Made by a program: the position numbers and the translations under genes. The notes under the pieces were generated by a model. The model saw nothing but the letters and a program-made list of their open reading frames with translations. It was not told where the DNA came from and did not search any database. From Squalus acanthias (Eukaryota), in contig JASTWF010000034.1 in NCBI GenBank assembly GCA_030390025.1, positions 1,736,001 through 1,800,000 of the forward strand: a DNA stretch of 64,000 nt, in the 5' to 3' direction. Positions 14,935-46,906 of this stretch are shown here, piece by piece. Numbering within the stretch: position 1 is the first letter of the stretch; each line of letters starts with the position of its first letter.

Positions 14935-15095
14935 TCTATCAAAAGGGGATTGGATAAGTGCCTGAAGGAATAAAAAATTGCAGTGCTCTGGTGAAAGTTC
15001 GTGGGATTGGGACTTGCTGAAATGCTCTTGCAGAGAGCCGGCATGGGCTCGATGGGCCGTAAAGCCTCCTTCTGTACTGTAACCATTCTATGATT
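14935..15095 (+). mobile_element. CR1 3' UTR fragment
   Basis: ...GATGGGCCG..GCCTCCTTCTGTACTGTAACCATTCTATGATT, a CR1-type 3' end. Confidence 0.7.
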
Positions 15096-17194: not shown

Positions 17195-17668
17195 TTAACT
17201 CGGAGATAAACCTTGCCCGTACCTCACCCGGGAGAGTTTGACACTTACATGTAGAGGGATCTTTATTCTGTATTGACCTCATGATGTACCCGAGCTGGTT
17301 GTGCTTCCTTGGCTAGTGACAAGGGAGCTGTACGCTGCACATGCTGTATTAGAGGGAGCTTTGCACGTCACCCGCGCTGTACCTGCCCTGCGAGTGTTTG
17401 ATTGGGCAGTGCAAGGGAGCTTTACTCTGCATCTCACTATCTAACCTGTGCTATACCTGCACTTGGACTGTTTGATTGGGCAGTGTAAAGGGAGCATTAC
17501 TCTGTATCACTCGATCTAACCTGTGCTACCTGCCCTTGGACTGTTTGATTGGGCAGTGTAAAGGGAGCTTTACTCTGTATCTCTCTATCTAACCTGTGCT
17601 ATACCTGCCCTTGGATTGTTTGATTGGGCAGTGTAAAGGGAGCTTTACTCTGTGTATAACCCATGCTA
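17195..17668 (-). repeat. 67-bp-family minisatellite, inverted and degenerate
   Basis: GGGAGCTTTACTCTGTATC..TAACC..TGCTATACCTGCCC..TGTTTGAT is the reverse complement of the unit at 6585. Confidence 0.9.
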
Positions 17669-19022: not shown

Positions 19023-19572
19023 AGACTCCCTCTATACTCTCCCATCAAACACTCCCAAAGCAGGTAGATCACGTGGTTCGATACAGAGTAAAGCTCCCTC
19101 TACACTGCCCCATCAAACACTCCCAAAGCAGGTACAGCACGGGTTAGATACAGAGTAAAGCTCCCTCTATAATGCCCCATCAAACACTCCCAGGGCAGGT
19201 ACAGCACGGGTTAGATACAGAGTAAAGCTGCCTCTACACTGTCCCATCAAACACTCCCAGGGCAGGTACAGCACGGGTTAGATACTGAGTAAAGCACCCT
19301 TTGCACTGTTCTATCAATCTTTCCCAGGGCAGTTTCAGACCATGTTTGATACAGAGTAAAGCTCCCTCTACACTGTCCCATTAAATGCTCCCAGGACAGG
19401 GGCAGCACGGGTTAGATACAGAGTAAAGCACCCTCGATACTGTCCATCAAACTCTCCTAGCGTACTTAGACATGGGTTCGATACAGAATATAGCTCCCTC
19501 TACAATGTTCCAACAAACACTCCCACGGCAGGAACAGCATGAGCTCGATACAGATTAAAGCTCCCTCTGCAC
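19023..19572 (+). repeat. 67-bp minisatellite, ~8 units
   Basis: Same unit as 6585-6848. Confidence 0.95.
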
Positions 19573-19604
19573 TTTTCTTCAGTTTTTTTCCCCGATCGCT
19601 CTCT

Positions 19605-20029
19605 ACCTTGCGTGCTCTCTCTCTCTCTCTCTCACACACACCTACACATAAGCATTCTCTCTCTCACTCACGCTCACACGCAAACACCAGCATTCTCTTT
19701 CTCTCTCTCTCTCTCTCACATACACACACACACAAAGCTTTCTCTCTCACACACAAACGCAAACACCAGCTATCTCTCTCTCTCTGACACACAAACACAG
19801 CTATCTCTGTTTCTCTCACACAAACACCAGCTTTCTCTGTTTCTCTCACACAAACACCAGCTTTCTCTCACACTCACACTAACACTAGCTTTATCTTTCT
19901 CTCACACACACACCAGCGTTCTCCAACAAAAACACCAGCTTTCTCTCTCTCTTTCTCTCACACAAACACCAGCTTTCTTTCTCTCTATCTCACACACAAA
20001 CACCAGCTTTCTCTCACACACACACACTT

Positions 20030-20075
<46 letters not shown>

Positions 20076-20288
20076 CAGCTTTCTCTCTCTCTCTCTCTCT
20101 CTCTCTCACAAACACCAGCATTCTCATTCTCTCTCTCTCTCTCACACACACAAACACAAACACCACCTTTCTCTCCCACACACACACAAACACCAGCTTT
20201 CTCTCTATCTTTCTGTCACACACACACAAACACCATCTCTCTCTCTCTCACAAACACCAGCTCTCTTTCTCTCTCTCACACAAACATC

Positions 20289-20328
<40 letters not shown>

Positions 20329-21043
20329 CGCACCAGTTTTCTCTCTCTCTCACACACACAAACACCAGCTTTTTCTCTCACACACAAGCACCAGCTCTCT
20401 CTCTCTCTCTTACAAACACCAGCTTTCTCTTTCTCTTTCTCTCTCACACAAACACCAGCTTTCTCTTTCTCTCTCTCTCTCTCACAAACAACAGGTTTCT
20501 CTTTCTCTCTCTCTCACACGCACACTCTCTCAAACACCAGCTTTCTCTCTCACACACACACTGTCTCTCTCAAACACAGGCGTTCTCTCTCTCACACACA
20601 CACACTCTCTGAAACACCAGCTTTATCTCTCTCTCTCACACACACATCCAAACACCAGCTTTCTCTCTCTCTCTCTCACACACACACACCAGCTTTCTCT
20701 CTCTCTCACACACACACACACACCAGCTTTCTCTCTCTCTCTCACACACACAAAAAACAGATTTCTCTCTCAGACAAACACGATCTTTCTCTGTCTCTCT
20801 CACAAACACACACACAAGCTTTCTTTCTCCATCTCTCTCGCACACAATCACCGACTTTCTCACACAAACACCAGCTTTCTCTCTCTCACACACAAACAGC
20901 AGCTTACCCTTTTTTTCTCTCTCTCTCTCACACACACACATGTGCGCTTTCTCTCTCTCTGTTTCACACACACGCACACACACGCTTTCTCTCTCTCCTC
21001 TCTCTCCTCTCACTCTCTCTCACACACAAACACCAGCTTTCTA

Positions 21044-21074
<31 letters not shown>

Positions 21075-21590
21075 AACACTAGCTTTCTGTCTCTCTCTCA
21101 CACACACAAACTCCCGCTTTGTCTGTCCTCTCTCACACACACACACAAACACCAGCTTTCTCTTTCTCTTTCTCACAAATACCAGCTTGCTTTCTCTCCC
21201 TCTCTCTCTCTCTCTCAAACACACACACCAGCTCTCTCTCTCTCTCTCTCTCTCTCTCAAAGAAATACCAGCTTTCACTATTTCTCTTTCTCTCTCACTC
21301 ACACACAAACACCAACTTTCTCTCTCTCACATACACAAACACTAGCTTTCTCTCTCTCACACACACAAAAAACAGCTTTCTCTCTCTCAAAAACGATCTG
21401 TCTCTCTCTCTCACACACAAGCACCAGCTTTTTCTATCTCACACACAAACACCAGCTTTCTCTCTCTCCCTCACACAAACACCTGCTTTCTCTCTCTCTC
21501 TCACAAACACCAGATTTCGCTCTCTCTCTCTCTTTCACACAAGCACCAGCATTCTCTCTCTCTCATTCTCACACACACCCGCTTTCTCTT

Positions 21591-21622
<32 letters not shown>

Positions 21623-21845
21623 GCACTTTGTGTCTCTCACACACACAAACAGCAGCTTTCTCACTCTCTCACTCACACACACAAACACAAGCTTCTCTCT
21701 CATACAAACACCAACATTCCCTCACATAGACAAGCAGCAACTTTCTTTCTCTCTCTCTCACACACACATAAACACCAGCTTTCTCTCTCTCGCTCACACA
21801 AACACCAACTTTCGCTCTCTCTCGCTCACACAAACACCAGCTTTA

Positions 21846-21879
<34 letters not shown>

Positions 21880-22144
21880 TCAAACACAAGCTTTCTCTCT
21901 CACACAAGCTTTCTCTTTCTCTCACACACAAAAACACCACCTTTCTCTCTCACGCAATCACCAGCTTTCTCTCTCTCTCTCACACACATAGCAGTTTTCT
22001 CTCTCACTCACACACACCAGCTTTCTGTCTCTCTCTCTCTCTCATTCACACACACTCACAAACACTAGCTTTCTCTCACACACACCAGCTTTCTCTCACT
22101 CACAAACAGCTTTTTCTCTCTCACACAGAAACACCAGCTTTCTG

Positions 22145-22185
<41 letters not shown>

Positions 22186-22800
22186 AACAGCAGCTTTCTC
22201 TCTCTCTCTCTCACACACAAACAGCAGCTTTCTCTCTCACTCTGTCTCTCATACAAACACCAGCATTCCCTCACATACACAAGCAGCAACTTTCTTTCTC
22301 TCTCACTCACACACAAACACCAGCTTTCTCTCTCTCGCTCACACAAACACCAGCTTAATCTCTCTCTCTCACACACACATACTCAAACACAAGCTTTCTC
22401 TCTCACACAAGCTTTCTCTTACACACACAAACACCAGCTTTCTCTACTCATACTCACACAAACACCAGCTTTCTCTCTCTCGCTCTCACACACACAAGCA
22501 CCAACTTTCTCTCGCTCTCGGACGCACGCACACGCACACGCACACACACACCAGCTTGTTTTCTCTTTCTCTGTCTCTCACACACAGAAACACCAGCATT
22601 CTCTCTCTCACACACGCACCAGCTTTTTCTCTGTCAAACACAAAAATACACGCTTTCTCTCTCTCTCTCTCTCTCTCAGACACACATACACCAGCTTTCT
22701 CTCTCTCTCACACAAATACCAGCTGTCTGTCTCTCTCTCACACACAGCAGCTTTCTCTCTCTCAAACACGCACACACCAGCTTTCTCTCTCACTCACTCA

Positions 22801-22850
<50 letters not shown>

Positions 22851-24246
22851 CCAGCTTTCTCTCTCTCTCACACACAGAACACCAGCTTTCTCTCTCTCTC
22901 ACACACAAACACAAGCTTTCTCTCTCTCTCGCACGCACACACACATAAACACAGGCTTTATCTCTCTCTCTCACACTTAAACACTCAAACACAAGCTTTC
23001 TCTCTCACACACACACAAGCTTTCTCTTTCTCTTACACACACACACCAGCTTTCTCTTCTCTCTCTCTCACCCACACACACACCAACACTTACTTTCTCG
23101 CTCTCACACACAAGCACCAACTTTCTCTCGCTCTCAGTCTCTCTCACCCACACACACACACGCTTTCTCTCTCTCACACACACACACAAACACCAGCTTT
23201 CTCTCTCTCACACAAGCACCCGCTTTCTCTCTCTCACACAAACTCCAGCGTTCCCTGTCTCTCTCTCACACACACACACACAAACCAGCCTGCTTTCTCT
23301 CTCTCTCTCTGTCTCTTACACACACACAAACCAGTCTGCTTTCTCTCTCTCTCTCTGTCTCTTACACACACAAACACCAGCTTTCTCTTTCTCTCTCTCG
23401 CACACAAACACCAGCTGTCTCTTTTACTCTCTCTCTCACACACAAAAACATTTCTCTCTCACACACAAAAAACAGCTTTCTCTCTCACACACACACGCAA
23501 GCTTTCTTTCTCTCTCTCTCCCACACAATCACTGACTTTCTCACACAAACACCAGCGTTCCCTCTCTCTCGCTCACAGTAACACCAGCGTTCCCTTTTTT
23601 TCTCTCTCTCTCTCTTTCTCACAAACACACAAATACCAGCTTTCTCTCTCACACACACACACAATAAACAGCTTTCTCTCTCTCTCAAAAACGATCTTTC
23701 TCTCTCACACAGACGCACCAGCTTTCTCTCTCCCTCACACAAACACCAGCTTTCTCTCTCTTGCTCACACAAGCACCAGCTTTCTCTCTCTCTTACTCAC
23801 ACACCCGCTTTCTCTTTCTCACACTCTCACACACACACACACTTTCTCTCTCTCACACACAGAAACACCAGCGTTCTCTCACAGAAACACCAGCTTACTC
23901 TCTCTCTCAGACAAACACCACCTTTCTTTCTCTATCACAAACAAACATCAGCTTTCTCTCTCTCTCTCTCGCTCTTTCTCTCACAGACACCAGCTTTCTC
24001 TCTCTCTCACACACACACAGAAGCTTTCTGTCTCTCTCTCACACACACACAAACACTAGCTTTCTCTCACACACACCAGCTTTCTCTCACACATAAACAG
24101 CTTTTTCTCTCTCTCACTCTCCCACACACACACAAACACAAGCTTTCTCTCACACACACACACCATCTTTCTTTCTCTCTCTCTCACATACAAACAACAG
24201 CTTTCTCTCTCATACAAACACCAACATTCTCTCTCACACACAAGCA
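19605..24246 (+). repeat. Compound (CT)n(CA)n-AAACACCAGCTTT minisatellite, ~4.6 kb
   Basis: Constant AAACACCAGCTTT core separated by variable CT and CA runs. Confidence 0.97.
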
Positions 24247-27200
24247 CCACTGTATACCTCCCTCCAGCCCACTATACTGAACGCTGTGGAACTCCATTAT
24301 ATACCTCCCTCCAGTCCCCTGAACTGAACGCTGTGGAACTCCACTGTACACCTCCCTCGAGCCCCCAGTACTGAACCTTGGGAACTCTATTGCATACCTC
24401 CCTCGAGCCCCCAGTACTGAACCCTTGGGAACTCCACTGTATACCAGCCAGCAGACACCAGTACTGAACCCTGGGGAACTCCACTGTATACCTCGCTTCA
24501 GAACCCAGTACTGTACCCTGGGTATCTCCACTGTATACCTCCCTCCATCCCCCAGTACTGAACCCTGGGTATCTCCACTGTATAACTCCCCCCAGACCCC
24601 AGTACTGAACCCTGGGGAACTCCACTATATACCTCCCTCCATCCCCCAGTACTGAACCCTGGGTATCTCCACTGTATACCTCAACCCAGGCACCAGTACT
24701 GATACCTGGGGAACTCCACTATATACCTCGCACCAGCCCACAGTGCAGAACCCTGGGGAACTCCACTGTATACCTGCCTCCAGCCCTTGATACTGAACCC
24801 TGGGGAACTCCACTGTATACGTCCCTCCAACCACCAGTACTGAACCCTGGGAAACTGCACTGTATACCTAACTCCAGCGCCCCAACACTGAACCCTTTGG
24901 AACAGCATTGTATATCTCCCTGCAGCCCACAGTACTGAACAATGGGAAACACCACTGTATACCTCCCATCAATCCCCAGTACTGAACCCTGGCGAACTCC
25001 ACTGTATACGTCCCAGCAGCCCACAGTACTGAACCTGTGGAACTCCACTGTATACCTCCCTCCAGACCCCAGTACTGAACCCTGGGGAAATCCACTGTAT
25101 ACCTCCCTCCAGCCCCCCAGTCCTGAAACCGAGGGAACTCCACTGTGTACCTCCCTCCAGCCCCCAGTACTGAAACCTAGGGAACTCCACTGTATACCTC
25201 CCTCCAGCCCCCAGTACTGAACCCTGGGGAACTCCACTGTATACCTCACTCCAGGCCCTGCTACTGAACACAGGGGAAATCCAATGTATACCTCCCTCCA
25301 GTCACCAGTACTAAACTCTGGGGTACTCCACTGTATACCTCCCTCCAGTCACCAGTACTAAACTCTGGGGAACTCCACTGTATACCTCCCTCCAGCCGCC
25401 CAGTACTGAAACCTAGGGAACTCCAATGTATACTTCCCTCCAGACCCTAGTACTGAACACTGGGAAACTCCACTCTATACCTCTATCCAGCCCCCCAGTA
25501 CTGATCCCTGTGGAACAGCACTGTATACCTCCCTCCAACCCTCAGTGCTGAACCTTGGGGAACTCCACTGTATACTTCTCTCCAGCACCCCAGTAATGAA
25601 CCTTGGGGAACTCCAGTGTATACCTCCCCCCAGACACCAGTACTGAACACTTGTGATCTACACTGTATACCTCCGCCCAGTCCCCAGTACTGAACCCTGG
25701 GGAACTCCACTGTATACCTCCTTCCAGATCCCAGTTCTAAACCCTCGGGAACTCCACTGTATACCTCCCTTCAATCCCCAATATTGAACACTGGGGAACT
25801 GCACTGTACACCTCCCTCGAGCCCCCAGTACTGAACCCTTGGGAACTCCACTGTATACCAGCCAGCAGACACCAGTACTGAACCCTGGGGAACTCCACTG
25901 TATACCTCGCTTCAGAACCCAGTACTGTACCCTGGGTATCTCCACTGTATATCTCCCTCCATCCCCCAGTACTGAACCCTGGGTATCTCCACTGTATAAC
26001 TCCCCCCAGACCCCAGTACTGAACCCTGGGGAACTCCACTATATACCTCGCTCCATCCCCCAGTACTGAACCCTGGGTATCTCCACTGTATACCTCAACC
26101 CAGGCACCAGTACTGATACCTGGGGAACTCCACTATATACCTCGCACCAGCCCACAGTGCAGAACCCTGGGGAACTCCACTGTATACCTGCCTCCAGCCC
26201 CTGATACTGAACCCTGGGGAACTCCACTGTATACGTCCCTCCACCCACCAGTACTGAACCCTGGGAAACTGCACTGTATACCTAACTCCAGCGCCCCAAC
26301 ACTGAACCCTTTGGAACAGCATTGTATATCTCCCTGCAGCCCACAGTACTGAACAATGGGAAACACCACTGTATACCTCCCATCAATCCCCAGTACTGAA
26401 CCCTGGCGAACTCCACTGTATACGTCCCAACAGCCCACAGTACTGAACCTGTGGAACTCCACTGTATACCTCCCTCCAGACCCCAGTACTGAACCCTGGG
26501 GAAATCCACTGTATACCTCCCTCCAGCCCCCCAGTACTGAACCCTCGGGAACTCCACTGTATACCTCCCCCCAGTCACAAGTACTGAACCCTGGGGAACT
26601 CCACTCTATACCTCCCCCCAGACACAAGTACTGAACCCTGGTGAACTCCACTGTACAGCTTCCAACAGACAGCAACACTGATCCTTCGGGAACTCCACTG
26701 TATACCCTCCCTCCAGACACCAGTACTGAACGCTGTGGAACTCAACTGTACACCTCCCTCGAGCCCCCAGTACTGAACCCTTGGGAACTCCACTGTATAC
26801 CAGCCAGCAGACACCAGTACTGAACCCTGGGGAACTCCACTGTATACCTCCCTCCAGCCCCCATTACTGAACCCTGGGTATCTCCACTGTATACCTCCCC
26901 CCAGACCCCAGTACTGAACCCTGGGGAACTCCACTGTATACCTCCCTCCATCCCCCAGTACTGAACCCTGGGTATCTCCACTGTATACCTCAACCCAGGC
27001 ACCAGTACTGATACCTGGGGAACTCCACTATATACCTCCCTCCAGCCCACAGTGCAGAACCCTGGGGAACTCCACTGTCTACTTCCCTCCAGACCCCATT
27101 ACTCTACCCTGTTGAAATCCACTGTATGAATCGCTCGAATCCCCAGTACTGAACTGTGAGGAACTCCACTGTACACCTCTCTCCTGACCGCAGTACTGAA

Positions 27201-30200
27201 CCCTGTGGAACTCGACTGTTTACCTCCCTCCAGCCCCCAGTACTGAACCCTGCGTAACTGCACTGTATACATCCCTGCAGCACCCAGTACAGCGTCTTGG
27301 GTATGTCCAGTGTTTGCCTACATCTAGCCCCCTGATCTACACCCTGGGGAACTCCAATATATAACTCCCTTCAGCCCACAGTATTGATCGCTGGGGAACT
27401 CCACAGTATACCTCCCCCAGATCCCAGTACTGAACCCTGGATAACTCCTCTGCAAACCTCACTCCAGCCCCTGCTACTGAACCCTGGTGAACTCCACTGT
27501 ATAAATCCCTCCAGACCCCAGTACTGAACCCTGGGGAACTCCACTGTATAAATCCCTCCAGCCCCCAGTACTGAACCCTGGGGAACTCCACTGTATACCT
27601 CCCTCCAGACCCCAGTACTGAACCCTGGGGAACTCCACTGTATACCTCCCCACAGACACTTGGACTGAATACTGGGGTGCTCCACTGTATACCTCCCTCC
27701 AGACCCCAGTACTGAAACCGGGGAGCTCCACTGTATACCTCCCCCTAGACCCCAGCACTGAACACTGGGGAACTCCACGGTACACCTCCCCCCGGACCCC
27801 AGCACTGAACCCTAGGGAACTCCACTGCATACCTCACTACAACCCCCAGTACTGAACCCTGGGAAACTCTACTTCCCTCCAAGCTCAGTAATGAACACTG
27901 GGGAACTCCACTGTAGACCACCCGCCAGACACCAGCACTGAACCCTGGGGAACTCCACTGTATACCTGCCTCCAGCCCCTGATGCTGGTCCCTGGGGGAC
28001 TCCACTGTATACGTCCCTCCATCCACCAGCACTGAACCCTGGGAAACTGCACTGTATACCTAACTCCAGCGCCCCAGTACTGAACCCTTTGCAACAGCAT
28101 TGTATATCTCCCTGCAGCCCACAGTACTGAACCATGGGAAACACCACTGTATACCTCCCTCCAATCCACAATACTGAACCCTGGCGAACTCCACTGTATA
28201 CCGCCCTCCAGACCCTGCTACTGAACCTGGGGAAATCCAATGTATACCTCCCTCCACTCACCAGTACTGAACTCTGGGGAACTCCACTGTATACCTCCCT
28301 CCAGCCCCCATAACTGAACCCTGGGGAACGCCACTGTATACCTCCCTCCAGATACCAGTACTGAGCCCTGGGGAACTCCACTGTATACTTCCCTCCAGAC
28401 CCCAGTACTGAAACCTAGGGAGATCCACTGTATAACTGTCTCCAAACCACAGTACTGAGCCCTGGGGAACTCCACTGTATACCTCCCTCCAGACCCTAGT
28501 ACTAAACACTGGGGAACTCCACTGTATACCTCCCTCCAGCACCCCAGTACTGATATCTGTGGAACTCCACTGTATACCTCCCTCCAACCCTCAGTGCTGA
28601 TACTTGGGGAACTCCACTGTCTACCTCCTTCCAGCCCCCAGTACTGAACACTGGGGAACTCCACTGTATACCTCCTTCCAGATCCCAGTTCTAAACCCTC
28701 GGGAACTCCATTATATACCTCCCTTCAATCCCCAATATTGAACACTGGGGAACTGCACTGTACACCTCCCTCGAGCCCCCAGTACTGAACCTTGGGAACT
28801 CTATTGCATACCTCCCTCGAGCCCCCAGTACTGAACCCTTGGGAACTCCACTGTATACCAGCCAGCAGACACCAGTACTGAACCCTGGGGAACTCCACTG
28901 TATACCTCGCTTCAGAACCCAGTACTGTACCCTGGGTATCTCCACTGTATATCTCCCTCCATCCCCCAGTACTGAACCCTGGGTATCTCCACTGTATAAC
29001 TCCCCCCAGACCCCAGTACTGAACCCTGGGGAACTCCACTATATACCTCCCTCCATCCCCCAGTACTGAACCCTGGGTATCTCCACTGTATACCTCAACC
29101 CAGGCACCAGTACTGATACCTGGGGAACTCCACTATATACCTCGCACCAGCCCACAGTGCAGAACCCTGGGGAACTCCACTGTATACCTGCCTCCAGCCC
29201 CTGATACTGAACCCTGGGGAACTCCACTGTATACGTCCCTCCACCCACCAGTACTGAACCCTGGGAAACTGCACTGTATACCTAACTCTAGCGCCCCAAC
29301 ACTGAACCCTTTGGAACAGCATTGTATATCTCCCTGCAGCCCACAGTACTGAACAATGGGAAACACCACTGTATACCTCCCATCAATCCCCAGTACTGAA
29401 CCCTGGCGAACTCCACTGTATACGTCCCAACAGCCCACAGTACTGAACCTGTGGAACTCCACTGTATACCTCCCTCCAGACCCCAGTACTGAACCCTGGG
29501 GAAATCCACTGTATACCTCCCTCCAGCTCCCCAGTACTGAACCCTCGGGAACTCCACTGTATACCTCCCCCCAGTCACAAGTACTGAACCCTGGGGAACT
29601 CCACTCTATACCTCCCCCCAGACACAAGTACTGAACCCTGGTGAACTCCACTGTACAGCTTCCAACAGACAGCATCACTGATCCTTCGGGAACTCCACTG
29701 TATACCCTCCCTCCAGACACCAGTACTGAACGCTGTGGAACTCAACTGTACACCTCCCTCGAGCCCCCAGTACTGAAACCTAGGGAGATCCACTGTATAA
29801 CTGTCTCCAAACCACAGTACTGAGCCCTGGGGAACTCCACTGTATACCTCCCTCCAGACCCTAGTACTAAACACTGGGGAACTCCACTGTATACCTCCCT
29901 CCAGCACCCCAGTACTGAACCCTGGGAAGCTCCACTCTATACCTCTATCCAGCCCCCCAGTACTGATATCTGTGGAACTCCACTGTATACCTCCCTCCAA
30001 CCCTCAGTGCTGATACTTGGGGAACTCCACTGTCTACCTCCTTCCAGCCCCCAGTACTGAACACTGGGGAAATCCACCGAAAACCGCCCTCCAGCACCTG
30101 CTACTGTTCCCTGGGGAACTCCAATGTATACCTCCACCCAGACACAAGTACTGAACCCTGGAAATCTCCACTGTATACCTCCCTCCAGACCCCAAAACTG

Positions 30201-33200
30201 AATACTGCGGAACTCCACTGTATACCTGGCTCGAGCCCCCAGTACTGAATTGTGGGGAACTCCACTGTTTACCTCCCTCCAGCCCCAAGTACTGAACTCT
30301 GCGGACCTCAACTGTATACCTCCCCCCAGACCCCAGTACTGAACCCTGGGGAACTCCACTGTATACCTACCTCAAGTCTCCAGTACATAACCCTGGGGAA
30401 CTCCATTATATACCTCCCCTCAGGCACCAGTACTGAACCCTGGAGAATTCCACTGTATACCTCCCTCCAGCCCCTGCTACTGAAACCTGGCAAACTGCAC
30501 TGTATACCTACCTCCAGCCCCCCAGTACTGAACCCTGGGGAAATCCAATGTATACCTCCCTCCAGCCCCCCAGTACTAAACCCTGGGGAAATCCACTGTA
30601 TACCTCCCCCGAGAACCCAGCAATGATCCCTGGAGTACTCCACTTTATCCCTCCCTCCAGACGCCAGTACGGAACCCTGGGGAACTCCACTGTGTACCTC
30701 CCTCCAGACCCTGCTGCTGAACCCTGAGGAACATCACTATATAACTCCTTCCAGACCCCAGTACTGAACCCTGGGGTACTCCACTGTATACAACCATCCA
30801 GCCCCTGCTACTGAACCCTTGGGAACTCCACTGTATACCTCCATCCAACCCCAGTACTGAACTCTGGGGAACTCCTCTGTATACCTCCCTCCGCACCCCA
30901 GTACTGAACACTGGGGAGCTCCACTGTAAACCTCCCTCCAGCACCCAAAACTGAATACAGCGGAACTCCACCGTATACCTATCCCAGACACCTGCACTGA
31001 GCCCTTGGGGTCTCCACTGCATACCTCGCTCGAGCCCCCAGTACTGAACTGTGGGGAACTCCACTGTACACCTCCCTCCAAGCCCCAGTACTGAACCCTG
31101 GGGAACTACACTGTATACCTCCCTCCAGCTCCTGCTACTGAAACCTGGCAAACTGCACTGTATACCTCCCTCCAGCCCCCCAGTACTGAACGCTGGGGAA
31201 ATCCAATGTATACCTCCCTCCAGTCCCCCAGTACTAAACCCTGGGGAAATCCACTGTATACCTCCCCCGAGAACCCAGCAATGATCCCTGGAGAACTCCA
31301 CTGTATACCTCCCTCCAGCCCACAGTACTGAACCCTGGGGAACTCCACTGTATACCTCCCTCCAGCCCCCGCTACTGAACCCTGGGGAAATCCACTGTAT
31401 ACATCCCTCCACTCCCCAGTACTGAACCCTGGGGAACTCCACTGTATACCTCCCTCCAGCCCCCAGTACTGAACCCCGGGGAATTCCACTTTATACCTCC
31501 CTCCAGACGCCAGTACGGAACCCTGGGGACCTCCACTGTGTACCTCCCTCCAGACCCTGCTACTGAACCCTGAGGAACATCACTACATACCTCCTTCCAG
31601 ACCCCAGTTCTGAACCCTCGGGAACTCCACTCTATACCTCCCTCCAGCCCACAGTACTGAACCCCGGGGAACTCCACTGTATACAACCGTCCAGCCCCTG
31701 CTACTGAACCCTAGGGCGCTCCACTGTATACCTCCATCCAACCCCCAGTACTGAACTCTGGGGAACTCCTCTGTATACCTCCCTCCGCACCCCAGTACTG
31801 AACACTGGGGAGCTCCACTGTAAACCTCCCTCCAGCCCCCCAAAACTGAATACTGCGGAACTCCACCGTATACCTATCCCAGACACCTGCACTGAGCCCT
31901 GGGTGTCTCCACTGTATACCTCGCTCGAGCCCCCAGTACTGAACTGTGGGGAGCTCCACTGTACACCTCCCTCCAGGCCCCAGTACTGAACCCTGGGGAA
32001 CTCCACTGTATACATCCCTCCAGGAACCAGTACAGCTTCCTGGATTTGTCCAGTGCTTGCCGACTCCAGCCCCCAGTTCTGATCGCTGGGGAAATCCAAT
32101 GTATACATCTCTCCATCCCCCACGACTATACCCTGGGGAACTCCACATTCTACCTCCCTCCAGACCCCAGTTCTGAACCCTGTGGAACTCCACTGTATAC
32201 CTCCCTCCTGCCGCTGCTACTAAAACCCTGGGGAACTCCACTGTATACCTCCCTCCTGACCCTGCTACTGAACCCTGGGGAACTCCACTGTATACCTCCC
32301 TCCTGACCCTGCTACTGAACCCTGGGAAACACCACTGTATACATCCCTCTAGCCCCCAGTAAAGCGTCCTGGGTATGTCCAGTGTTTGCCTACCTCCAGC
32401 CCCCTGTTCTGAACCCTGGGCATCTCCACTGTATACCTCCCCCCCTACACCAGCACTAAACCCTGGGGAACTCCACTCTATACCTCCCCCCAGACACCAG
32501 TACTGAACCCTGGGGAACTCCACTGTATACCTCCATCAAGACCCTAGTACTGAACCCTGCGGAACTCCACTGTATACCTCCTTCCAGACCCTGCTACTGA
32601 ACCCTGGGGAACGAGACTGTGTAGCTCCTTCCAGACTCCAGTAATGAACCCTGGGGAATGCCACTGTATACCTCCCTCCAGCCCCCAGTATTGAACCCTG
32701 GGGATCTCCACTGTATACCTCCATCGAGCCCCCAGTACTGAACTGTGGGGAACGCCACTGTACACCTCTCTCCAGACCCCAATACTGAACCCTGGGGAAC
32801 TCCACTGTACACATCCACCAGCCCCTAGTACAGCGTCCTGGTTATGTCCAGTGTTTGCCTACCTCCAGCCACCAGTTCTAAACCCTGGGGAACTCCAATT
32901 TATACCTCCCTTCTGCAAGCAGTACTGATCGCTGGGGAAATCCACTGTACACCTCCCTCCAGTCACCACTACTGAAACCTGGGGAACTCCACTGTTCAGA
33001 TCCCCCCAGACAGCAGTACTGAACCCTGGGGAACTCCACTGTATACCACCCTCCAGACCCCAGTTCTGAACCCTGGGGAACTCCACTGTATACCTTCACC
33101 CAGACACCAGTACTGAACCCTGGGGAACTCCTCTGTATACCTCCCTCCAGACAACAGTATTTAACCCTGGGGAACTCCACTGTATACCTCCTTCCAGCCC

Positions 33201-34245
33201 ACAATACTGAACGCTGGGGAACTCCACTGTACAGCTCCCTCGAGCTCCCAGTTCTGAGTCCTGGGGAACTCCACTGTATACCTCCCGGAAGACCCCAGAA
33301 CCGAACCCTGAGGGACTCCATTGTATACCTCCTTCCTGTCCCCAGGACTGACACCTTGGGAACTCCTCTGTATACCTTCCTCCAGCCCCCAAAACTGAAT
33401 AATGCGGAACTCAACTGTCTACCTTCCTCCAGACCCCAGTACTGAACCCTGGGGAACTCCACTGTATACCTCCCCCCAGACACGAGCGCTGAACCATGGG
33501 GAACTCCATTGTACACCTCTCTCCAGACACCGGTATTGAACCCTGGGGATCTCCACTGTATACCTCCCTCCAGACCCCAGTACTGAACCCTGGTGAACTC
33601 CATTGTATACCTCCCCCCAGATACCAGCACTGAACCCTGGGGATCTCCACTGTATACCTCGCTCGAGCCCCCAGTACTGAACTGTGTGGAACGCCACTGT
33701 ACACCTCTCTCCACACCCCAGTGCTGAAACCTGGGGAACTCCACTGTATGCAGCCCTCCAGCCCCAAGTACAGCCTCCTGGGTATGTCCAGTGTTTGCCT
33801 ACCTCCAGCCCCCTGTACTGAACCCTGGGGATCTCCACTGTATACCTTCCCCCAGACACCAGTACTGAATTCTGGGAAACTCCACTGTATACCTCCCTTC
33901 AGCCCAAATTACTGTCCCCTGGGGAATTCCACTGAAAACCTCCCTCCAACCCACAATAGTGAAGTCTGGGGAACTCCACTGTATACCTGCCTCCTGCCCC
34001 TGCTACTGAATACTAGGGAACTCCACTGTATACCTCCCTGCAGGCTCCTGTACTGAACCCTCGGGACCTCCACTGTACACCTCCCTCGAGCCCCCAGTAC
34101 TGAACCCTGGGGAACTCTATTACAGACCTCCCTCGAGCCCCAAGTACTGAACCCTGGGGAACTCCACTGTATACCTCCTTCCAGCCCACAATACTGAACG
34201 CTGGGGTACTCCACTGTATACCTCCCACAAGCCCCCATGACTGAA
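24247..34245 (-). repeat. 47-bp satellite derived from the CR1 RT motif (left block, roughly 210 units by length)
   Basis: Unit GTACTGAACCCTGGGGAACTCCACTGTATACCTCCCTCCAGACCCCA. The minus strand translates as [15 protein letters not shown]. Confidence 0.97.
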
Positions 34246-37160
34246 CATAGAATCATAGGAGCAGGAGCATGCCATTCAGCCCCTAGAGTCAGCTGCTCCA
34301 TTCAAGGAGATCATGGCTGATCATCCAAATTCAGTACCCTGTCCCTGCTTTCTCCCCATATCCATTGATCCCTTTAGCCTTAAGAATTATATCGAACTCC
34401 TTCTTGAATATATTTAATGAGTTGGCCTCAACTGCCTTTTGTGATAGAGAATTCCACAGGTTCAAAACTCTTTGGATGAAGAAATTCCTCCTCATCTCTG
34501 TCCTAAATGGCTTATCCCTTATCGTCAGACTGTGACCCCTGGTTCTGGACTCCCCGGCCATCGGGAACATCCTTCCTGGTCCTAGTCTGTTTATAAGTTT
34601 CAATGAGATCCCCTCTCATTCTTCTGAACTCCAGCGAGTATAAGCCCAATCTACCCAATCTCTCCTCATCCGTTATTCCTGCCATCCCAGGTATCAGTCT
34701 GGTGAATCTTCGCTGCACTCCCTCCATGGCAAGAACATGCTTCCTCAGATAAGGCGACCAAAACTGCACAAAATACTCAAGATGTGGTCTCACCAAGGCT
34801 CTGTGCAACTGCAGCAAGACATCCTTGTTCCTGTACTCGAACCCTCTCGCTACGAAGGCCAACATCCATTTGCCTTCTTAACCGCCTGCTGCACCTGCAT
34901 GCTTACCTTCAGTGACTGGTGCACAAGGACACCCAGTTCTAGTTGCACTTCCCCTTCTCCCAATCTATTGCCATTCAGATAATAATCTGCCTCCTGTCTT
35001 TGCCAACAAAGTGGATAACCTCGCATTTATCCACGTTATATTGCATTTGCCATGCATCAGCCCAATCACCCAACCTATCCAAATCATCCTGGAGTTTCTC
35101 TGCATCCTCCTCACAGCACACACACCCACCCAGCTTTGTGTCGTCTGCAAACTCTAAGATATTACATCTAGTTCCGTTGTCTAGATCATTAATATATATT
35201 GTGAATAGCTTTGGTCTAAGGATCGATCCCTGCGGTACCCCACTAGTCACTGCCTGCCACTCGGAAAAAGACTCGTTTATTCCAACTGAATGCTTCCTGT
35301 CTGCCAACCAGTTCTCTATCCAAGTCAGTACACTGCCCACAATCGCATGTGCCTTAACTTTACATGCTAATCTCTTATGCGGGACCTTATCGAAAGCCTT
35401 CTGAAAGTCCAAATACACCACATCCACTGGTTCTCCCTTATCTATTTTACCAGTTACATCCTCAAAAAATTCCAGTAGATTAGTCAAGCACGATGTTACC
35501 TTATGTAAATCCATGTTGATTTTGACCGATCCTGTCACTGTTTTCCAAGTGCTCTGCTATTACATCTTTTGTAATGGACTCCAACAATATCCCCACTACC
35601 GATGTCAGGCTTCCCTGTCTATAATTCCCCGTTTTCTCCCTACCTCCTTTTTTAAATAGTGGGGTAACACTAGCTGCCCTCCAATCCATGGGAATTATTC
35701 CAGTGTCTATAGAATTTTGGAAGATGACTAGCAATGCATCTAGTATTTCTAAGGCCACTTCCTGAAGTTCCCTAGGATGTAGATTATCAGGCCCTGGGGA
35801 TGACTCTGCCTTCAATCCCATCAATTTCTCTAACACCATTTCCCTACAATTACTGATTTATTTCAGATCCTCCCTCTCATTAGACCCTATGTTCCCCGAC
35901 ATCTCTGGGGAGGTTATTTGTGTCCTCCTTTGTGAAGACAGAAACAAAGTATGTATTCGATTGGTCTGCCAGTTTCTTGTTCTCCATTATAAATTCCCCT
36001 GATTCTGACTGCAAGGGACCTACGCTTGACTTCACCAATCTTTTTCTCTTCACATAATTATAGAAGCTTTTACGGTCAGTTTTTATGTTCCTCGCAATCT
36101 TACTCTCATACTCTATTTTCCCCCTCTTAATTAATCCCTTTGTCCTCCTCTGCTGAAACCTAAACTGCTCCCAATCCTCAGGTTTGCTGCTTTTTCTGGC
36201 CAATTTATATGTCCTCTCTTTGGATCTTATGCTATCCCTAATTTCCCGTGTTATCAACGGTTGATTCACATTTTTGTTTTATTTTTATGCCAAACAGGTC
36301 AGAACAAATTCTGTAGTTCATCCATGCGATCTTTAAATGTTTGCCTTTGCCTATCCACCATCAACCCTTTGATTAACATTCCCCAATCAATCCTACCCAA
36401 TTCGCGCCTCGTACCATCATAGTTTCCTTTATTTAAATTGAGGACCCTAGTTTCTGAGTCAAATACTTCACTCTCCATCTTAATGAAGAATTCGATCATA
36501 TTATGATCACTCCACCCCAAGGGGCCTCGCACAACAAGATTCCTAATTATTCCTTTCTAATTACATAATACCCATTCTAAGATGGCCTGATCTCGAGTTG
36601 GTTCCTCGACATATTGGTCCAGGAACCCATCCAGTATGCACTCCAGACATACTTCCTCCACAGTATTGTTACTAATTTGGTTAGCCCAATCTATATGTAG
36701 ATTAAAGTCACCCATGATAACTGCACTGCCCTTATTGCACACGTCTCTAATTTCCCGTTGAATGCCATCCCCAACTTCAGCATTACTGTTTGGGGGTCTG
36801 TATACAACTCCCACTAACGTTTTCTGCCCCTTGGTATTGCTCAGCTCTACCCATACAGATTCTACATCATCAGAGCTAATATCCTTCCTTACAATTGTGT
36901 TAATCTCCTCTTTAAACAGCAATGCTACCCGATTCCTTTTCCGGTTTGCCTGTCTTTCCTGAATATTGAATACCCCTGGATGTTGAATTCCCAGCCTTGT
37001 CACCCTGGAGCCATGTTTCCGTTATCCCAATCATATCATATCCGTTTACATCTATTTGCGCCACTAATTCATCCACCTTATTACGAATGCTCCTCGCATT
37101 CAGATACAAAGCCTTCAGGCTTGTTTTTTAACACTCTTAGACCTTTTAGAATTATTATTT
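34246..37160 (-). mobile_element. CR1 LINE (ORF2 EN+RT, no ORF1) inserted in the 47-bp satellite
   Basis: YLNARSIRNK, GDFN, WSDH, KAFDKVPH and FADD in broken frames. CATAGAAT tail at 34246. Confidence 0.96.
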
Positions 37161-38605
37161 ACCGGGGAACTCCACTGTCTACCTCCCTCTAGACCCCAGT
37201 ACTGAACTCTGGGGAACTCCACTGTATACCTCCCCCCGGATACCAGTACTGAACTCTGGGGAACTCCACTGTCTACCTCCCTGCAGTCCCCAGTGCTGCA
37301 CCCTGGGGAACTTCACTGTATACCTCCCACCAGACACCAGGACTGAACCCTGGGGAATTCCACTGTATACTTCCCCCCAGCCCCCAGTACTGATCCCTGG
37401 GTAACTCCACTGTATACTTCCCCCCAGACACCAGTACTGAACCCTGGGGAACTCCACTGTGTACCTCCCTCCAGACCCCAGTCCTGAATCCTGGGGAAGT
37501 CCACTGTATACCTTCCTCCAGCCCCCAGTATTGAACCCTGGGGAACTGCACTATATACCTCCCTCCAGCCCCTGCTACTGAACCATGGGGAACTCCACTG
37601 TATACCTCCCTCCAGCCCCCAGCATTAAACTCTGGGGACCTCCACTGTATATGTCCCCCCCAGACCCCAGTACTGAATCTTGGGGAACTCCACTGTAAGC
37701 CTCCTTCCAGACCCCAGTACTGAACCCTGGGGAACTCCACTGTATACCTCCCTCCAGACCCCAGTACGGAACGCTGGTGAACTCCACTGTATACCACCCT
37801 CCAGACCCCAGTACTGAACCCTGGGGAACTCCACTGTATTCCTCCCTCCAGACCCCAGTACTGAACCCTGGGGAACTCCACTGTATACCTCCCTCCAGAC
37901 CCCAGTACTGAACCCTGGGGAACTCCACTATATACCTCCCTCCAGACCCCAGTACAGGACCCTGGGGAAATCCACTATATACCTCCCCCCAGACCCCAGT
38001 ACTGAACCCTGGCAAACTCCACTATATAACTCAATCCAGACCCCAGTACTGAAACCTGGGGAACTCCACTGTATACCTCCCTCCAGACCCCAGTACTGAA
38101 CCCTGGGGAACTCCACTGTATACCTCCCTCCAGACCCCAGTACTAAACTCTGGGGACCTCCACTGTATACGTCCCCCCCAGACCCCAGTACTGAACCTTG
38201 GGGAACTCCACTGTAAGCCTCCTTCCAGACCCCAGTACTGAACCCTGGGGAACTCCACTGTATACCTCCCTCCAGACCCCAGTACGGAACGCTGGTGAAC
38301 TCCACTGTATACCACCCTCCAGACCCCAATACTGAACCCTGGGGAACTCCACTGTATACCTTCCTCCAGACCCTAGTACTGAACCCTGGGGAACTCCACT
38401 GCATACCTCCCTCCAGACCCCAGTACTGAACCCTGGGGAACTCCACTGTATACTTCCCTCCAGACCCCAGTACTGAACCCTGGGGAACTCCACTGTATAC
38501 TTCCCTCCAGACCCCAGTACTGAACCCTGGGGAACTCCACTGTATACCTCCCCCCAGACCCCAGTACTGAACCCTGGGGAACTCCACTCTTTACCTCCCT
38601 CCGAC
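37161..38605 (-). repeat. 47-bp CR1-derived satellite (right block, ~30 units)
   Basis: Same unit as the left block and more homogeneous. Confidence 0.97.
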
Positions 38606-38870
38606 CCGAAGACAGCCATTCATCACAATTTTTTGTTTTCTGTCCCTGATCCAATTTGTATCCATGCTGCCTCTGCCCCTTTTATCCCATGGGCTTTAAT
38701 TTGCTAACAAGCATAATATGTGTAACTTTATCAAACGCCTTTTGAACGTCCGGATAAAGAACATCATCTGCACAGCCCTCATCAATCCTGTTACCCCATC
38801 AAAACTCTCAATCAGTTTAGTCAAACACGATTTGCCTTCAACAAATCTGGGCTGGCTCTCCCTGATAACA
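38580..38870 (-). mobile_element. Parent CR1 RT fragment contiguous with the first satellite unit
   Basis: The minus strand shows GFVEGKSCLT, KAFDKV and WIRDRKQKIVMNGC-like segments running directly into [13 protein letters not shown]. Confidence 0.85.
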
Positions 38871-38994
38871 AATACACAGTGGAATAAAGATCCAGTGAAT
38901 GGGTAAATTGGGCTTGATCAGCAAGACACAGGGCAATAAATTTATCATTAATTGTTAACTTGAACATGACAACCAGCACAGAGGGGAATAGAGC

Positions 38995-39900
38995 GAGAGA
39001 TTTCTCATCTACTCGTTGCCCCTTGGTGACATCATCCCAAAACACAGTGTCAGTTTCCACATGTACGTTGACGACACCCAGCTCTAACTCACTACCTCTT
39101 CTCTCGACCCCTTCACAGTGTCTCAATTGTCAGACTGCTTGTCCGAGATACAGTTCTGAATGAGCTAAAAGTTTCTCAAATTATATATTGGGAAGAACGA
39201 AGCCATTGATTTCGGTCCCTGCCTCCAACACCGTTCCGTAGCCACAGATTCAATCCCTCTCCCTAACATCTGACTGAGGCTGAACCACACTGTTCACAAC
39301 ATTGTTTTAATATTTGACCCTGAAGTGAGCCTCCGACCACATATCCGCAGCATAACAAAGGCCGCCTACTTCCACCTCCGTAACATCGCCCGTCTCCGCC
39401 CTTGCCTCTTCTTATCCTCTGCTGAAACCCTCATCCATGCCTTTGTTACTTCTAGACTTGACTATTCCAACGCACTCCTGGCTGGCCTCCCACATTCCAC
39501 CCTATGTAAACTTGAGGTCATCCAAAACTCGGCTGCCCCTGCCCTAACTCGTACCAAGTCCCGTTCACCCATCTCCCCTGTGCTCGCTGACCGACACTGG
39601 CTCCCGGTTAAGCAGCACCTCGATTTCAAAATTCTCATCTTTGCTTTCAAATCCCTCCACGGCCTCGCCCCTTCCTATCTCTAATCTCCTTTAGCCCCAC
39701 AGCCACTCCCCAGCCCCGCCCCTCTATTTCCTCCTTAAACACGCTCCTCAAAACCTAACTCTTTGACCAAGCTTTTGGTCACATGCCCTATTTTATCCTT
39801 ATGTGGAACGGAGCCAATTTTGTGTCTTAAACTCCTGAGCAGCGCCTTGGGACATTTTACTACTTTAAAGCCGCTATATAAATACACGTTGTTGTTGTTG
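38995..39900 (+). mobile_element. L2-clade LINE 3' fragment
   Basis: [13 protein letters not shown] 39325-39684 (YFHLRNIARLRP, HAFVTSRLDYSN). Tail GCTATATAAATACACGTTGTTGTTG. Confidence 0.92.
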
Positions 39901-40137: not shown

Positions 40138-42040
40138 GTTAGTTAATTGTTAAATTGGGTATGATAACCAATACACAGAGTAAAACTGTTATTTAATTGT
40201 TAAATTGGGTATGATAACCAATACACAGGGTAAAACTGTCACAGTTAATTGTTAAATTGGATATGATAATAAATACACAGAGTAAAACTGTTATTTAATT
40301 GTTAAATTGGGTATGATAACCAATACACAGGGTAAAACTGTCAGTTAATTGTTAAATTGGATATGATAACCAATACACAGGGTAAAACTGTCAGCTATTT
40401 GTTAAATTTGGTATGATAACCAATACACAGGGTAAAACTGTCAGTTAATTGTTAAATTGGGTATGATAACAAATACACAGGGTAAAACTGTCACAGTTAA
40501 TTGTTAAACTGGGTATGATAATCAATACACTGGGCAACATTGTCAGTTAATTGGCAAATTGGGTATGATAACCAATACACAGGGTAAAACTGTCACAGTT
40601 AATTGTTAAATTGGGTATGATAACAAATACACGGAGTAAAACTGTTATTTAATTGTTAAATTGGGTATGATAACCAATACACAGGGTAAAACTGTCACAG
40701 TTAATTGTTAAATTGGATATGATAACAAATACACAGAGTAAAACTGTTATTTAATTGTTAAATTGGGTATGATAACCAATACACAGGGTAAAACTGTCAG
40801 TTAATTGTTAAATTGGATATGATAACCAATACACAGGGTAAAACTGTCAGCTATTTGTTAAATTGGGTATGATAACCAATACACAGGGTAAAACTGTCAG
40901 TTAATTGTTAAATTGGGTATGATAACAAATACACAGGGTAAAACTGTCAGTTAATTGTTAAATTGGGTATGATAACCAATACACAGGGTAAAACTGTCAG
41001 TTAATTGTTAAATTGGGTATGATAACCAATACACAGGGTAAAACTGTCACAGTTAATTGTTAAATTGGGTATGATAACCAATACACAGGGTGAAACTGTC
41101 ACAGTTAATTGTTAAATTGTGTATGATAACCAATACACAGGGTAGAACTGTCACAGTTAATTGTTAAATTGTGTATGATAACCAATACACAGGGTAGAAC
41201 TGTCACAGTTAATTGTTAAATTGGATATGATAACTAATACACAGGGTAAAACTGTCAGTTAATTGTTAAATTGGGTCTGATAACCAATACACAGGGTGAA
41301 ACTGTCACAGTTAATTGTTAAATTGTGTATGATAACCAATACACAGGGTAAAACTGTCACAGTTAATTGTTAAATTGTGTATGATAACCAATACACAGGG
41401 TAAAACTGTCAGTTAATTGTTAAATTGGGTATGATAACCAATACACAGGGTAGAAACTGTCACAGTTAATTGTTAAATTGGTTATGATAACCAATACACA
41501 GGGTAAAACTGTCACAGTTAATTGTTAAATTGGGTATGATAACCAATACACAGGGTGAAACTGTCACAGTTAATTGTTAAATTGGGTATGATAACCAATA
41601 CACAGGGTAAAACTGTCACAGTTAATTGTTAAATTGTGTATGATAACCAATACACAGGTTGAAACAGTTAGTTAATTGTTACATTGGGTATGATAACCAA
41701 TACACAGAGTAAAACAGTTATTTAATTGTTAAATTGGGTATGATAACCAATACACAGGGTATAATTGTCACAGTTAATTGTTAAATTGGGTATGATAACC
41801 AATACACATGGTAAAACTGTCACAGTTAATTGTTAAATTGGGTATGATAACCAATACACATGCTAAAACTGTCACAGTAAATTGTTAAATTGGGTATGAT
41901 AACCAATACACATGCTAAAACTGTCACAGTAAATTGTTAAGTTGGGTATGATAACCAATTAACAGTGTAAAACTGCCGCAGTTAATTGTTCATTGGGTAT
42001 GATCACCAATAAACAAGCGAGTAAAGTTAATTCTTAAATT
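40138..42040 (+). repeat. 50/52-bp AT-rich satellite, ~37 units
   Basis: Unit GTTAATTGTTAAATTGGGTATGATAACCAATACACAGGGTAAAACTGTCA(CA). Confidence 0.97.
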
Positions 42041-45744: not shown

Positions 45745-46420
45745 TTCACCAGTCTGTCTATGTCCTCCTGAAGCCTACTACTATCCCGCTCTGTGTGTAT
45801 ATAAAAGGCTATATCATTAATATATATCAAAAAGAGCAGTGGTCCGAATAACGACCCCTGGGGGTTACCACTGTACACTTCCCTCCAGTCTGAACAACAA
45901 CCGTTCACCACTACTCCCGGTTTTCTGTCCCTTAGCCAATGTCAGATCCCCACTGCCACTGTCCCTTTGGTCCTATCAAGTCTATTCAATTGTACTTCAT
46001 CAAATGCATTTTGAATGTCCATATACACAACATCAACCGCACTACCCTCATCAACCAGTTCCGTTACTTCATCAAAGAACAAAAAACAAAGTTTGTCAGA
46101 CACACTTTGCCGTTAACATATCCGTGCTGGTTGTCATTTATTAATCCATGTTTTTTCCAAAGACATAAACTTTTCTCTGTGAATATGGCCTCTAGAGTTT
46201 TCCCCACCACTGACGTTCGGCTGACTGGCCTGCAGTTACAGGGATAATCCCTCTCTCCTTTTTTAAACAGTGTGTAACATTTTCAACACTCCTGTCCTAT
46301 GGCACCATTCCCATATCCGAGGAGGATTAAAATATTCTGGCCAGAGCCTGCGCTATTTCCACCATTCCTTCCCTCAGCAATCCTCATACTTCCCATCCGG
46401 ACCAGGTAAATGTTCTACTT
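45745..46420 (-). mobile_element. Old CR1 RT fragment
   Basis: Reverse complement of GNPQGSLFGP, VSLTSVVGK and PGPDG-like segments. Confidence 0.75.
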
Positions 46421-46725: not shown

Positions 46726-46906
46726 ATGGATCAGAATCTGAGAACAGTAGATTGGAATGTTGCAACAATGGGCAGGAGTTTCAGCTCGGATATTGACCAT
46801 CTTTCAGAATATTATGATAGAATGTCATTAGACAGGCGGATACAGTTGGCACTTTGGATTATCCAATACATTTACTATCCCCTCCTTGCTGCTGTTGGTG
46901 TTCCTG
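46726..46906 (+). CDS. First coding exon (N-terminus and start of TM1) of a GPR139-like class A GPCR; downstream exon not found in window
   Basis: MDQNLRTVDWNVATMGRSF...IQLALWIIQYIYYPLLAAVGVP followed by a phase-1 donor G|GTAAGT at 46907. YYPxLAxxGVP|(V)N is recalled as typical of the GPR139/GPR142-like family. AT-rich TATA-like sequence near 46589. Confidence 0.78.

Follow-up and report, generated by a model that had tools for sequence, protein, structure and literature searches.

Results and Discussion

Structure of the array and its cassette

The window, a 64,000-nucleotide stretch of the Squalus acanthias contig JASTWF010000034.1, carries a 47-bp tandem array, an adjoining CR1 remnant and a cassette with further repeats and the first predicted exon of a receptor gene (Table 1). 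The LINE-like fragment of this cassette is putatively of the L2 type.

Table 1. Features of the array and the receptor cassette (window coordinates unless another sequence is named).
Feature	Position	Strand	Remarks
TC/CA-rich simple-repeat tract	19618..24243	.	abuts the distal end of the array
47-bp array, distal block	24247..34246	-	~213 units (TRF: 212.8 copies, 78% matches)
5'-truncated CR1 inside the array	34247..37163	-	2.9 kb; family other than that of the stub
47-bp array, proximal block	37164..38607	-	~31 units (TRF: 30.7 copies, 87% matches)
Parent CR1 stub, decayed	38608..38866	-	~260 bp; RT region from KSCLT to just before WREV
Degenerate remnant of 52-bp (2 x 26) satellite	38870..38988	.	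insertion target of the parent CR1
LINE-like repeat fragment, other than the CR1s above	39000..39900	+	88% to window 15440-16148; in most paralogous cassettes
52-bp (2 x 26) satellite, part of the cassette	40141..42015	.	length very variable among paralogs
Predicted coding exon 1, rhodopsin-class GPCR	46726..46906	+	shark relatives annotated 'probable GPR139/142'
Predicted GPCR exon 2	G000:C2671:1816598-1817506 (outside the window)		phase matches exon 1; stop-free

Summed over both blocks the array comprises about 244 units or 11.4 kb with a period of 47 bp according to TRF, in agreement with the roughly 240 units and 11.5 kb given by the first-pass annotation. As a correction to the latter, a CR1 of another family splits the array into two. 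The first unit of the proximal block is located at about 38561-38607, and all units of the window are on a single strand with no inverted block among them. On the minus strand the commonest unit corresponds to a 15-residue motif of the CR1 reverse transcriptase (RT) plus two bases, and as 47 is not a multiple of three the motif shifts frame at each unit. The motif had been assigned to the array as a whole, which is right for the commonest unit, but the exact 15-mer is encoded by only 12 of the 242 full units and its 10-residue core by 28. Compared with the column majority, units differ on average at 5.9 positions in the distal and at 3.1 positions in the proximal block. The distal block additionally shows near-identical internal duplications of several units, with 20 units repeated at an offset of 64 units and others at offsets of 30 and 94. 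The array is poor in CpG (observed/expected 0.07-0.17 vs 0.42 in the flanks), and the TC/CA-rich tract at its distal junction was seen only in the window copy and its closest paralog (C1120).

That the stop-free minus strand has a coding role was rejected: none of the 8,000 candidates that were scored (121-385 aa) gave a protein match, and the array shows no codon-position bias (403/365/379, p=0.86). Three candidate mechanisms were also dismissed. As a cause of the expansion, a 6-bp hairpin stem is present but does not exceed that of shuffled sequences (z -1.2 to -1.4). The case for a G-quadruplex is weak: a G4Hunter-like score is 0.96 for the motif in the parent and 1.44 when the unit junction is spanned, but other parts of the parent score 1.28-1.72. 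For the array as a specific recombination hotspot, the flanks on its two sides are uncorrelated (Mantel -0.13, p=0.81, 17 loci), but a control with 12 loci (0.08-0.46) shows mosaicism throughout the cassette, so that this is not specific to the array.

Origin of the unit

The stub reads as colinear CR1 RT across frameshifts (KSCLT, KAFDKV, WIRDRKQKIVMNG), lies just 5' of the motif and directly abuts the first unit, as the first-pass annotation had proposed. Its proposal of a CR1 RT origin is likewise supported: all 20 fetched dispersed single CR1 copies of one subfamily agree with the unit in 40-45 of 47 bases, and each of them continues into ordinary RT. The unit is thus homologous to part of a CR1, and these alignments support the view that it derives from the RT motif of this one dispersed subfamily. 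As 50 dispersed CR1 copies carry no tandem repeat over the motif, the head-to-tail array is not part of the element itself. In the parent subfamily a GGAC direct repeat flanks the 47-bp piece with a spacing of 46 bp, one base off the period. The motif had also been described as conserved in every CR1 of the window, which holds for the protein but not for the DNA, where no more than 27-35 of 45 bases agree between the unit and the other CR1 copies.

The parent itself is incomplete. None of the 43 visible array ends shows its 3' continuation, and the CR1 RT following many short arrays was rejected as such because the similarity of this tail to the parent family is only 64-72%, compared with about 80-85% for the stub. 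The description of an array still attached to its parent LINE is correct for the direct junction, but the parent is reduced to a 260-bp stub without its downstream half. No copy keeping the parent's 3' half was found, so that we infer the founding state. Distal units have diverged by 11-12% from the commonest unit, and the stubs lie 10-13% away from the parent subfamily (13.0% from the column majority for the window stub with its first unit, 10.3-11.7% for three others). With such similar values, array and insertion are of about the same age.

Copies in the genome

The junction of stub and array occurs at a minimum of 49 loci, 40 of them with 93-100% identity; array loci number about 55. The CR1 flank described as single-copy is single only within the window. 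A misassembled junction can be rejected, as the junction was present at 40 of 40 scored loci and is genuine. The 42 sized arrays range from 8 to 366 units (45-fold, median about 30), copy numbers differing between loci as in a multilocus minisatellite. We estimate 8,600-10,000 units in the assembly, or about 0.4-0.5 Mb (about 0.01%), with the longest sized array reaching 366 units and about 17 kb; collapsed arrays could hide more. The repeat lacks the very long arrays or large genome share of classical satellite DNA. The arrays sit on small scaffolds, and among the matches listed no exact unit-junction match falls on C1-C47, of which C2, C10, C20 and C30 are chromosome-scale; the examined DNA covers 1850 of the 5532 genome-wide junction matches, about a third, so that further arrays may lie outside the receptor cassette.

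The copies share much more than the stub. The 5' insertion junction of the parent CR1 has 42 exact copies in the genome, and the flank common to many array loci extends for up to 10 kb. Of 21 paralogs, 12 have a flank colinear with the window over most or all of the 10 kb at about 90-95% identity, while in the remaining ones mostly longer 52-bp arrays or insertions fill it; a mean flank identity of 96% was measured. Most arrays precede a GPR139/142-like receptor gene of a kind that is expanded in sharks, at a distance of 5-18 kb from its exon 1, and exon 1 was found in the expected orientation within 25 kb of 39 of 54 array loci, which is a lower bound (one duplicate row was dropped). A shared flank longer than 1 kb with at least 90% identity and a linked gene mark a passenger of segmental duplication, and the array has both. 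The exon itself has at least 150 matches, compared with about 55 array loci. The flank tree was poorly resolved and had no usable root, and alignment of the two older paralogs over the flank used reached only 56-58%. More diverged paralogs, with stubs 82-84% identical, already carry arrays.

All seven inspected headless or partial arrays are or may be cassette copies, three of them with deletion joins to cassette sequence; L159 and L160 have no visible stub, and for the array of L162 no link to a cassette was established. The distal ends are of six or more kinds, the type of the window occurring in 2 of 43. The 5' junction of the second CR1 is at the identical place within the unit in 18 copies listed, including the window, which means that the window shares this insertion with at least 17 other copies; many paralogs are without it. 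A literature search that included the text of PMC11979771 and covered subscription journals only sparsely found nothing on a shark GPR139-like expansion or on the 47-bp repeat.

Model and alternatives

Probably the minisatellite arose once, in a single dead CR1 copy, and was carried along as the receptor cassette underwent segmental duplication, the array being a likely neutral passenger, which we take as the default assumption. Directly observed for this are the subfamily from which the unit stems, the stub, insertion junction and long flanks common to dozens of loci, the link to exon 1, the length variation and the internal duplications. A 5'-truncated CR1 would have inserted at the edge of the 26/52-bp satellite of the cassette, and soon after the 47-bp piece flanked by the GGAC repeat may have doubled head to tail. 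Slippage and unequal exchange could then have lengthened and shortened the array, and deletions would have removed the 3' half of the parent. The second CR1 presumably inserted once and was then inherited or exchanged among copies, with the window copy as one late, strongly expanded paralog.

We consider it improbable that the arrays are functional, either as a putative source of small RNAs directed at the parent CR1 subfamily or by attracting CR1-directed silencing and so controlling how active the neighbouring receptor genes are. In favour of it, the estimated units compare with at least 1,903 dispersed copies of the parent family that match the motif, and 30 motif-selected copies, which still look fairly young (median 4.3% from the column majority), show a median of one mismatch in the best 25-nt window. 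Furthermore, the arrays keep a fixed place upstream of the receptor gene and appear common to several labelled organisms. However, the unit matches only its own CR1 subfamily at the DNA level: the other CR1 copies of the window differ from it at 3-7 positions of the best 25 nt, with perfect runs of only 5-8 nt, and the earlier argument from the conservation of the motif fails at this level for CR1 families other than the parent's. Also against a function are the single strand of the window units, with no inverted block for double-stranded RNA, the CpG-poor array, the 45-fold length variation and the excess of exon-1 matches over array loci. No array-bearing record labelled RNA was listed, and contigs spanning the tandem were found in two runs guessed as RNA but possibly DNA, which count for neither side. 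Slightly less probable again is a putative LINE-derived rheostat, in which host defences against CR1 RT (piRNAs or DNA-binding repressors) would land on the arrays, array length (8-366 units) would tune or silence one GPCR sub-clade and the about 9,000 units would be the main source of small RNAs against the CR1 subfamily. If true, its targets would belong to a shark-expanded, fast-diversifying GPCR family.

The first-pass annotation had seen an amplification in situ with its birthplace preserved at the window locus. That this locus is the true birthplace from which all other copies descended is very improbable, even if its array is among the longest and its distal units are old and diverged. 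Its junction was inherited within the duplicated cassette, it carries the secondary CR1 insertion that many paralogs are without, its stub has diverged more from the parent subfamily than the three others, its distal end is uncommon and the more diverged paralogs already hold arrays. Hardly credible is stub plus array as a mobile, non-autonomous SVA-like element spread by retrotransposition: it would fit the many loci in both orientations and the variable internal repeat number, but is largely refuted by the same flank beyond the stub in every copy inspected upstream, the lack of exact junction matches on C1-C47 among those listed, and the differing distal ends in place of a common 3' tail.

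The array is a clean example of a LINE catalytic domain turned into a tandem repeat, with dozens of natural replicates that go back to one starting array and now differ in length. This set might be used to study minisatellite growth and as a marker for one sub-clade of the expanded shark receptor family. A satellite that seems still attached to its parent in a single window can mislead, as here the junction came with the duplicated cassette. The array demonstrates no new mechanism, and the receptor cluster carrying the array may be more interesting than the array.

Comparison with known repeats

In human 19p12, beta-satellite arrays have been co-duplicated with tandem members of the KRAB zinc-finger family. 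The shark repeat differs in being demonstrably TE-derived and in marking only a subset of its gene family.

Among CR1-built tandem repeats, the passages of PMC9659126 and PMC6947457 describe the chicken HinfI (SCR1) repeat, which contains a piece of CR1 3' UTR and partial ORF2, and chicken centromeric repeats related to CR1-C. The shark array resembles them in its CR1 origin, and HinfI also in the ORF2 part, but its 47-bp unit lies wholly within the RT domain and its arrays spread with a gene cassette. An origin from a LINE coding region is not unprecedented, as PROsat of Phodopus and Pvc 20 of Phoca are satellites homologous to LINE-1 ORF2 (PMC9659126). Both are related to L1 and not to CR1, PROsat over a small region only, and the passages of that source make no mention of a retained parent junction as present in the shark. 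For the human genome, Ahmed and Liang (2012, PMC3389668) count 7,276 TE-derived repeats, 601 of them from L1, and 185 multilocus clusters. These minisatellites share with the shark array the local duplication of a TE piece, growth over time, several loci and variable copy number; they mostly have 2-3 units, whereas the shark array reaches hundreds of units at about 55 loci. TE-derived tandem repeats, including those from ORF2, are already known, and the shark array adds an instance.

Origin of the 47-bp unit

The 47-bp array is genuine, belongs to a known class of repeat and has the CR1 origin that the first-pass annotation proposed. A secondary, 5'-truncated CR1 of another family divides it into two blocks (see table), and splitting the array gave 242 full units, CpG-poor and all in one orientation, which differ from the column majority by a mean of 3.1 bases in the proximal block (near the CR1 stub) and 5.9 bases in the distal block. 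On the minus strand the commonest unit corresponds to 15 residues of the motif plus two bases, and this exact coding is kept in 12 of the 242 units. Near-identical runs of 5–20 units recur at offsets of 30, 64 and 94 units, which points to recent unequal exchange in this copy.

Using a degenerate motif we found 1,903 dispersed copies of the WRKVYSG/WREVYSG CR1 family, and a 30-nt stretch from within the unit gave 26 isolated matches on scaffolds C2–C24. All 20 dispersed copies that were fetched carry the motif once, match the unit at 40–45 of 47 bases and continue into ordinary reverse transcriptase (RT) sequence, which supports the derivation of the unit from the CR1 RT motif. Neither these 20 nor 30 further WRKVYSG/WREVYSG family copies showed a tandem repeat covering the motif in Tandem Repeats Finder (TRF). 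The claim that CR1 RT sequence runs straight into the first unit was also borne out by the stub; past it, away from the array, come what is left of a 52-bp satellite, a fragment of another LINE-like repeat and the 52-bp array proper. Four stubs measured against the column majority of the 20 dispersed copies diverge from it by 10.3–13.0%, the stub of the window being furthest, and 14 of the 20 copies lie 2.6–11.3% from their own majority, the other six (13–46%) being mostly alignable only in part. The unit segment of the parent subfamily lies between two copies of GGAC, a direct repeat with a spacing of 46 bp. A slip at this repeat together with one extra G could have produced the 47-bp unit, and a staggered duplication would fit equally well; a minisatellite start from short flanking repeats is among the topics described in PMC6947457.

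Features of the window (RT, reverse transcriptase)
Feature	Position	Strand	Remark
Young-looking CR1	163-3542	+	open frames of 266 aa and 599 aa separated by one frame change; endonuclease and RT regions
Minisatellites of 67, 24, 30-32, 75, 67 and 33 bp	6585-6847, 13598-13926, 13970-14941, 17376-17653, 19026-19573, 60482-60671		
C2H2 zinc-finger remnant	12700-13230	+	frameshifted, likely a pseudogene; common to the C1120 paralog
47-bp array, distal block	24247-34246	minus-strand motif	TRF, 212.8 copies
Secondary CR1, 2.9 kb	between the two array blocks	-	3' tail at left end; Pfam RVT_1 match
47-bp array, proximal block	37164-38607	minus-strand motif	TRF, 30.7 copies
Decayed CR1 RT stub, 260 bp	38608-38866	-	joins first unit directly
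52-bp (2 x 26) satellite	40141-42015		upstream of receptor; length-variable, at least ~9 kb in some paralogs
Decayed WREVYSG-family CR1	45850-46130	-	just upstream of receptor exon
Receptor exon 1, short	46726-46906	+	related 7tm_1 proteins carry the annotation 'probable GPR139/142' in sharks
51-bp repeat in receptor intron	61995-62395		length-variable; 0.4 kb here, at least 2.4 kb on C1120

Copies and history of the array

The stub with the first units gave a full-length match, with 93–100% identity, at every one of the 40 places scored among 2,845 candidates. For the 34-nt sequence that joins the stub to the 52-bp satellite 42 exact matches were found, and at least 49 stubs exist when four found later are counted. 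This locus is therefore not a unique birthplace: what had been taken for a preserved one is a junction that dozens of duplicated receptor cassettes have inherited. An exact 35-mer across the unit junction was counted 1,133 times, and 5,532 matches were obtained for a 28-mer when up to two mismatches were allowed; the first exact match falls on C48 in both listings, these scaffold positions referring to exact matches only, with inexact ones on large scaffolds possible. C2, C10, C20 and C30 measure 13–216 Mb, C35 and C47 less than 0.14 Mb. Scaling from the fetched DNA, which holds about one third of the matches, we estimate 8,600–10,000 units or ~0.4–0.5 Mb in the genome.

The 42 arrays that were sized, one of them ending at a contig end, have 8–366 units (median ~30), a range from which several long arrays of unobtainable size are left out. 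As the 5' junction of the secondary CR1 is identical in the 18 copies listed, it was likely inserted once, and it is present in further loci. Two copies of it lie in each of the arrays at L028 and G000:C218:249441-265823, so that here the insertion was duplicated along with surrounding units. Divergence from the commonest unit is 3.9% at ranks 2–10 near the stub, the most uniform part, and 11–12% distally. The latter is close to the decay of the stub, so that array and parent CR1 insertion are likely of about the same age.

Among 47 distal ends displayed four are gaps or unclear. At least six types (21, 7, 5, 3, 2, 2 and three singles) can be told apart in the remaining 43, none of these visible ends continuing into PLLFLIYIND of the parent. 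The two types that lead on to RT sequence run into RT-like sequence with only a 64–72% match to the parent family, and the type of the window occurs otherwise only in its sister on C1120. In three headless arrays a deletion has created a join to other sequence of the cassette. The flanks on the two sides of the array have decoupled histories, but the decoupling is as great across the rest of the cassette.

From 34 to 48% of the words of 38400-39000 are present in eleven DNA-type runs (six organism labels and one unlabelled row). In four other runs, contigs that cross unit junctions were obtained from X12 (organism B), X13 (A, one 76-base contig), X15 (H) and X17 (I), and contigs across the 5' insertion junction of the parent from X12, X13 and X15; none across the whole stretch was found in these four runs. 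This suggests that cassette and array are older than the split of these labelled organisms.

The receptor cassette as carrier

On the upstream side of the stub, colinearity with the window extends over most or the whole of the fetched 10 kb in 12 of 21 paralogs (~90–95%), and in most others longer 52-bp arrays or insertions fill the flank. The stub plus 830 bp shows a mean identity of 96% among 39 copies. Receptor exon 1 has at least 150 genome matches (150 scored of 955 candidates), and an in-phase exon 2 free of stops is predicted 34 kb downstream. Exon 1 was located within 25 kb, oriented as expected, at 39 of 54 array loci, mostly at 5–12 kb, a count that enters the C218 array once, leaves out the small array L162, takes two exon positions from separate searches and includes several misses near contig ends. 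Only part of an expanded receptor family is thus marked by the array. In L087 the array has been fused by a deletion to the decayed-CR1 region upstream of the receptor, which brings it within ~1 kb of exon 1.

Exon 1 (46711-46905, plus strand; paralogs L100 and L104–L122) is more divergent than its flanks, with 85–89% versus ~92–95% DNA identity, and over codons 25–51 pairwise pN is 0.251 versus a pS of 0.107 (11 exons, uncorrected, pairs not independent). This suggests diversifying selection on the N-terminal ectodomain of this GPCR family, which is expanded in sharks and has at least 150 matches. On the scaffold of the window, G000:C2671:1716029-1739704 is 99.1–99.97% identical over ~24 kb, including exon 1, to window positions 43896-68020, past the window end. 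The stretch ends at an N gap (3705-4204), its partner lying 64 kb downstream, and represents either a very recent duplication or a false assembly duplication. Unrelated tandem repeats are dense across the region.

Possible function

The best reading is that the array is a neutral passenger. Substitutions in the units show no codon-position bias, the stop-free strand of the array has no protein match and the unit does not fold beyond shuffles. In a favourable sample of 30 motif-selected copies of its own CR1 family, the best 25 nt of the unit have a median of one mismatch; at the seven further motif sites that were scored in the window there are 3–7 mismatches in the best 25 nt, with 27–35 of 45 bases matching. 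For silencing, judging by these matches, it could pair with its own family, but not well with those seven sites. A regulatory or small-RNA role has a low probability.

Comparison with known repeats

Among the papers listed in our literature search none on the 47-bp repeat or on the GPR139/142-like receptor cluster was found. Tandem repeats derived from transposable elements are common, PMC3389668 giving 7,276 in human (601 from L1 and 185 multilocus clusters), and PMC10620051 includes the observation that in the zebra shark longer chromosomes have a lower content of simple tandem repeats. Chicken centromere repeats related to CR1-C appear in PMC6947457. Among the ORF2-related satellites listed in PMC9659126, chicken HinfI is, like the 47-bp array, a tandem repeat from CR1, whereas PROsat and Pvc 20 share the relation to ORF2 but derive from L1.
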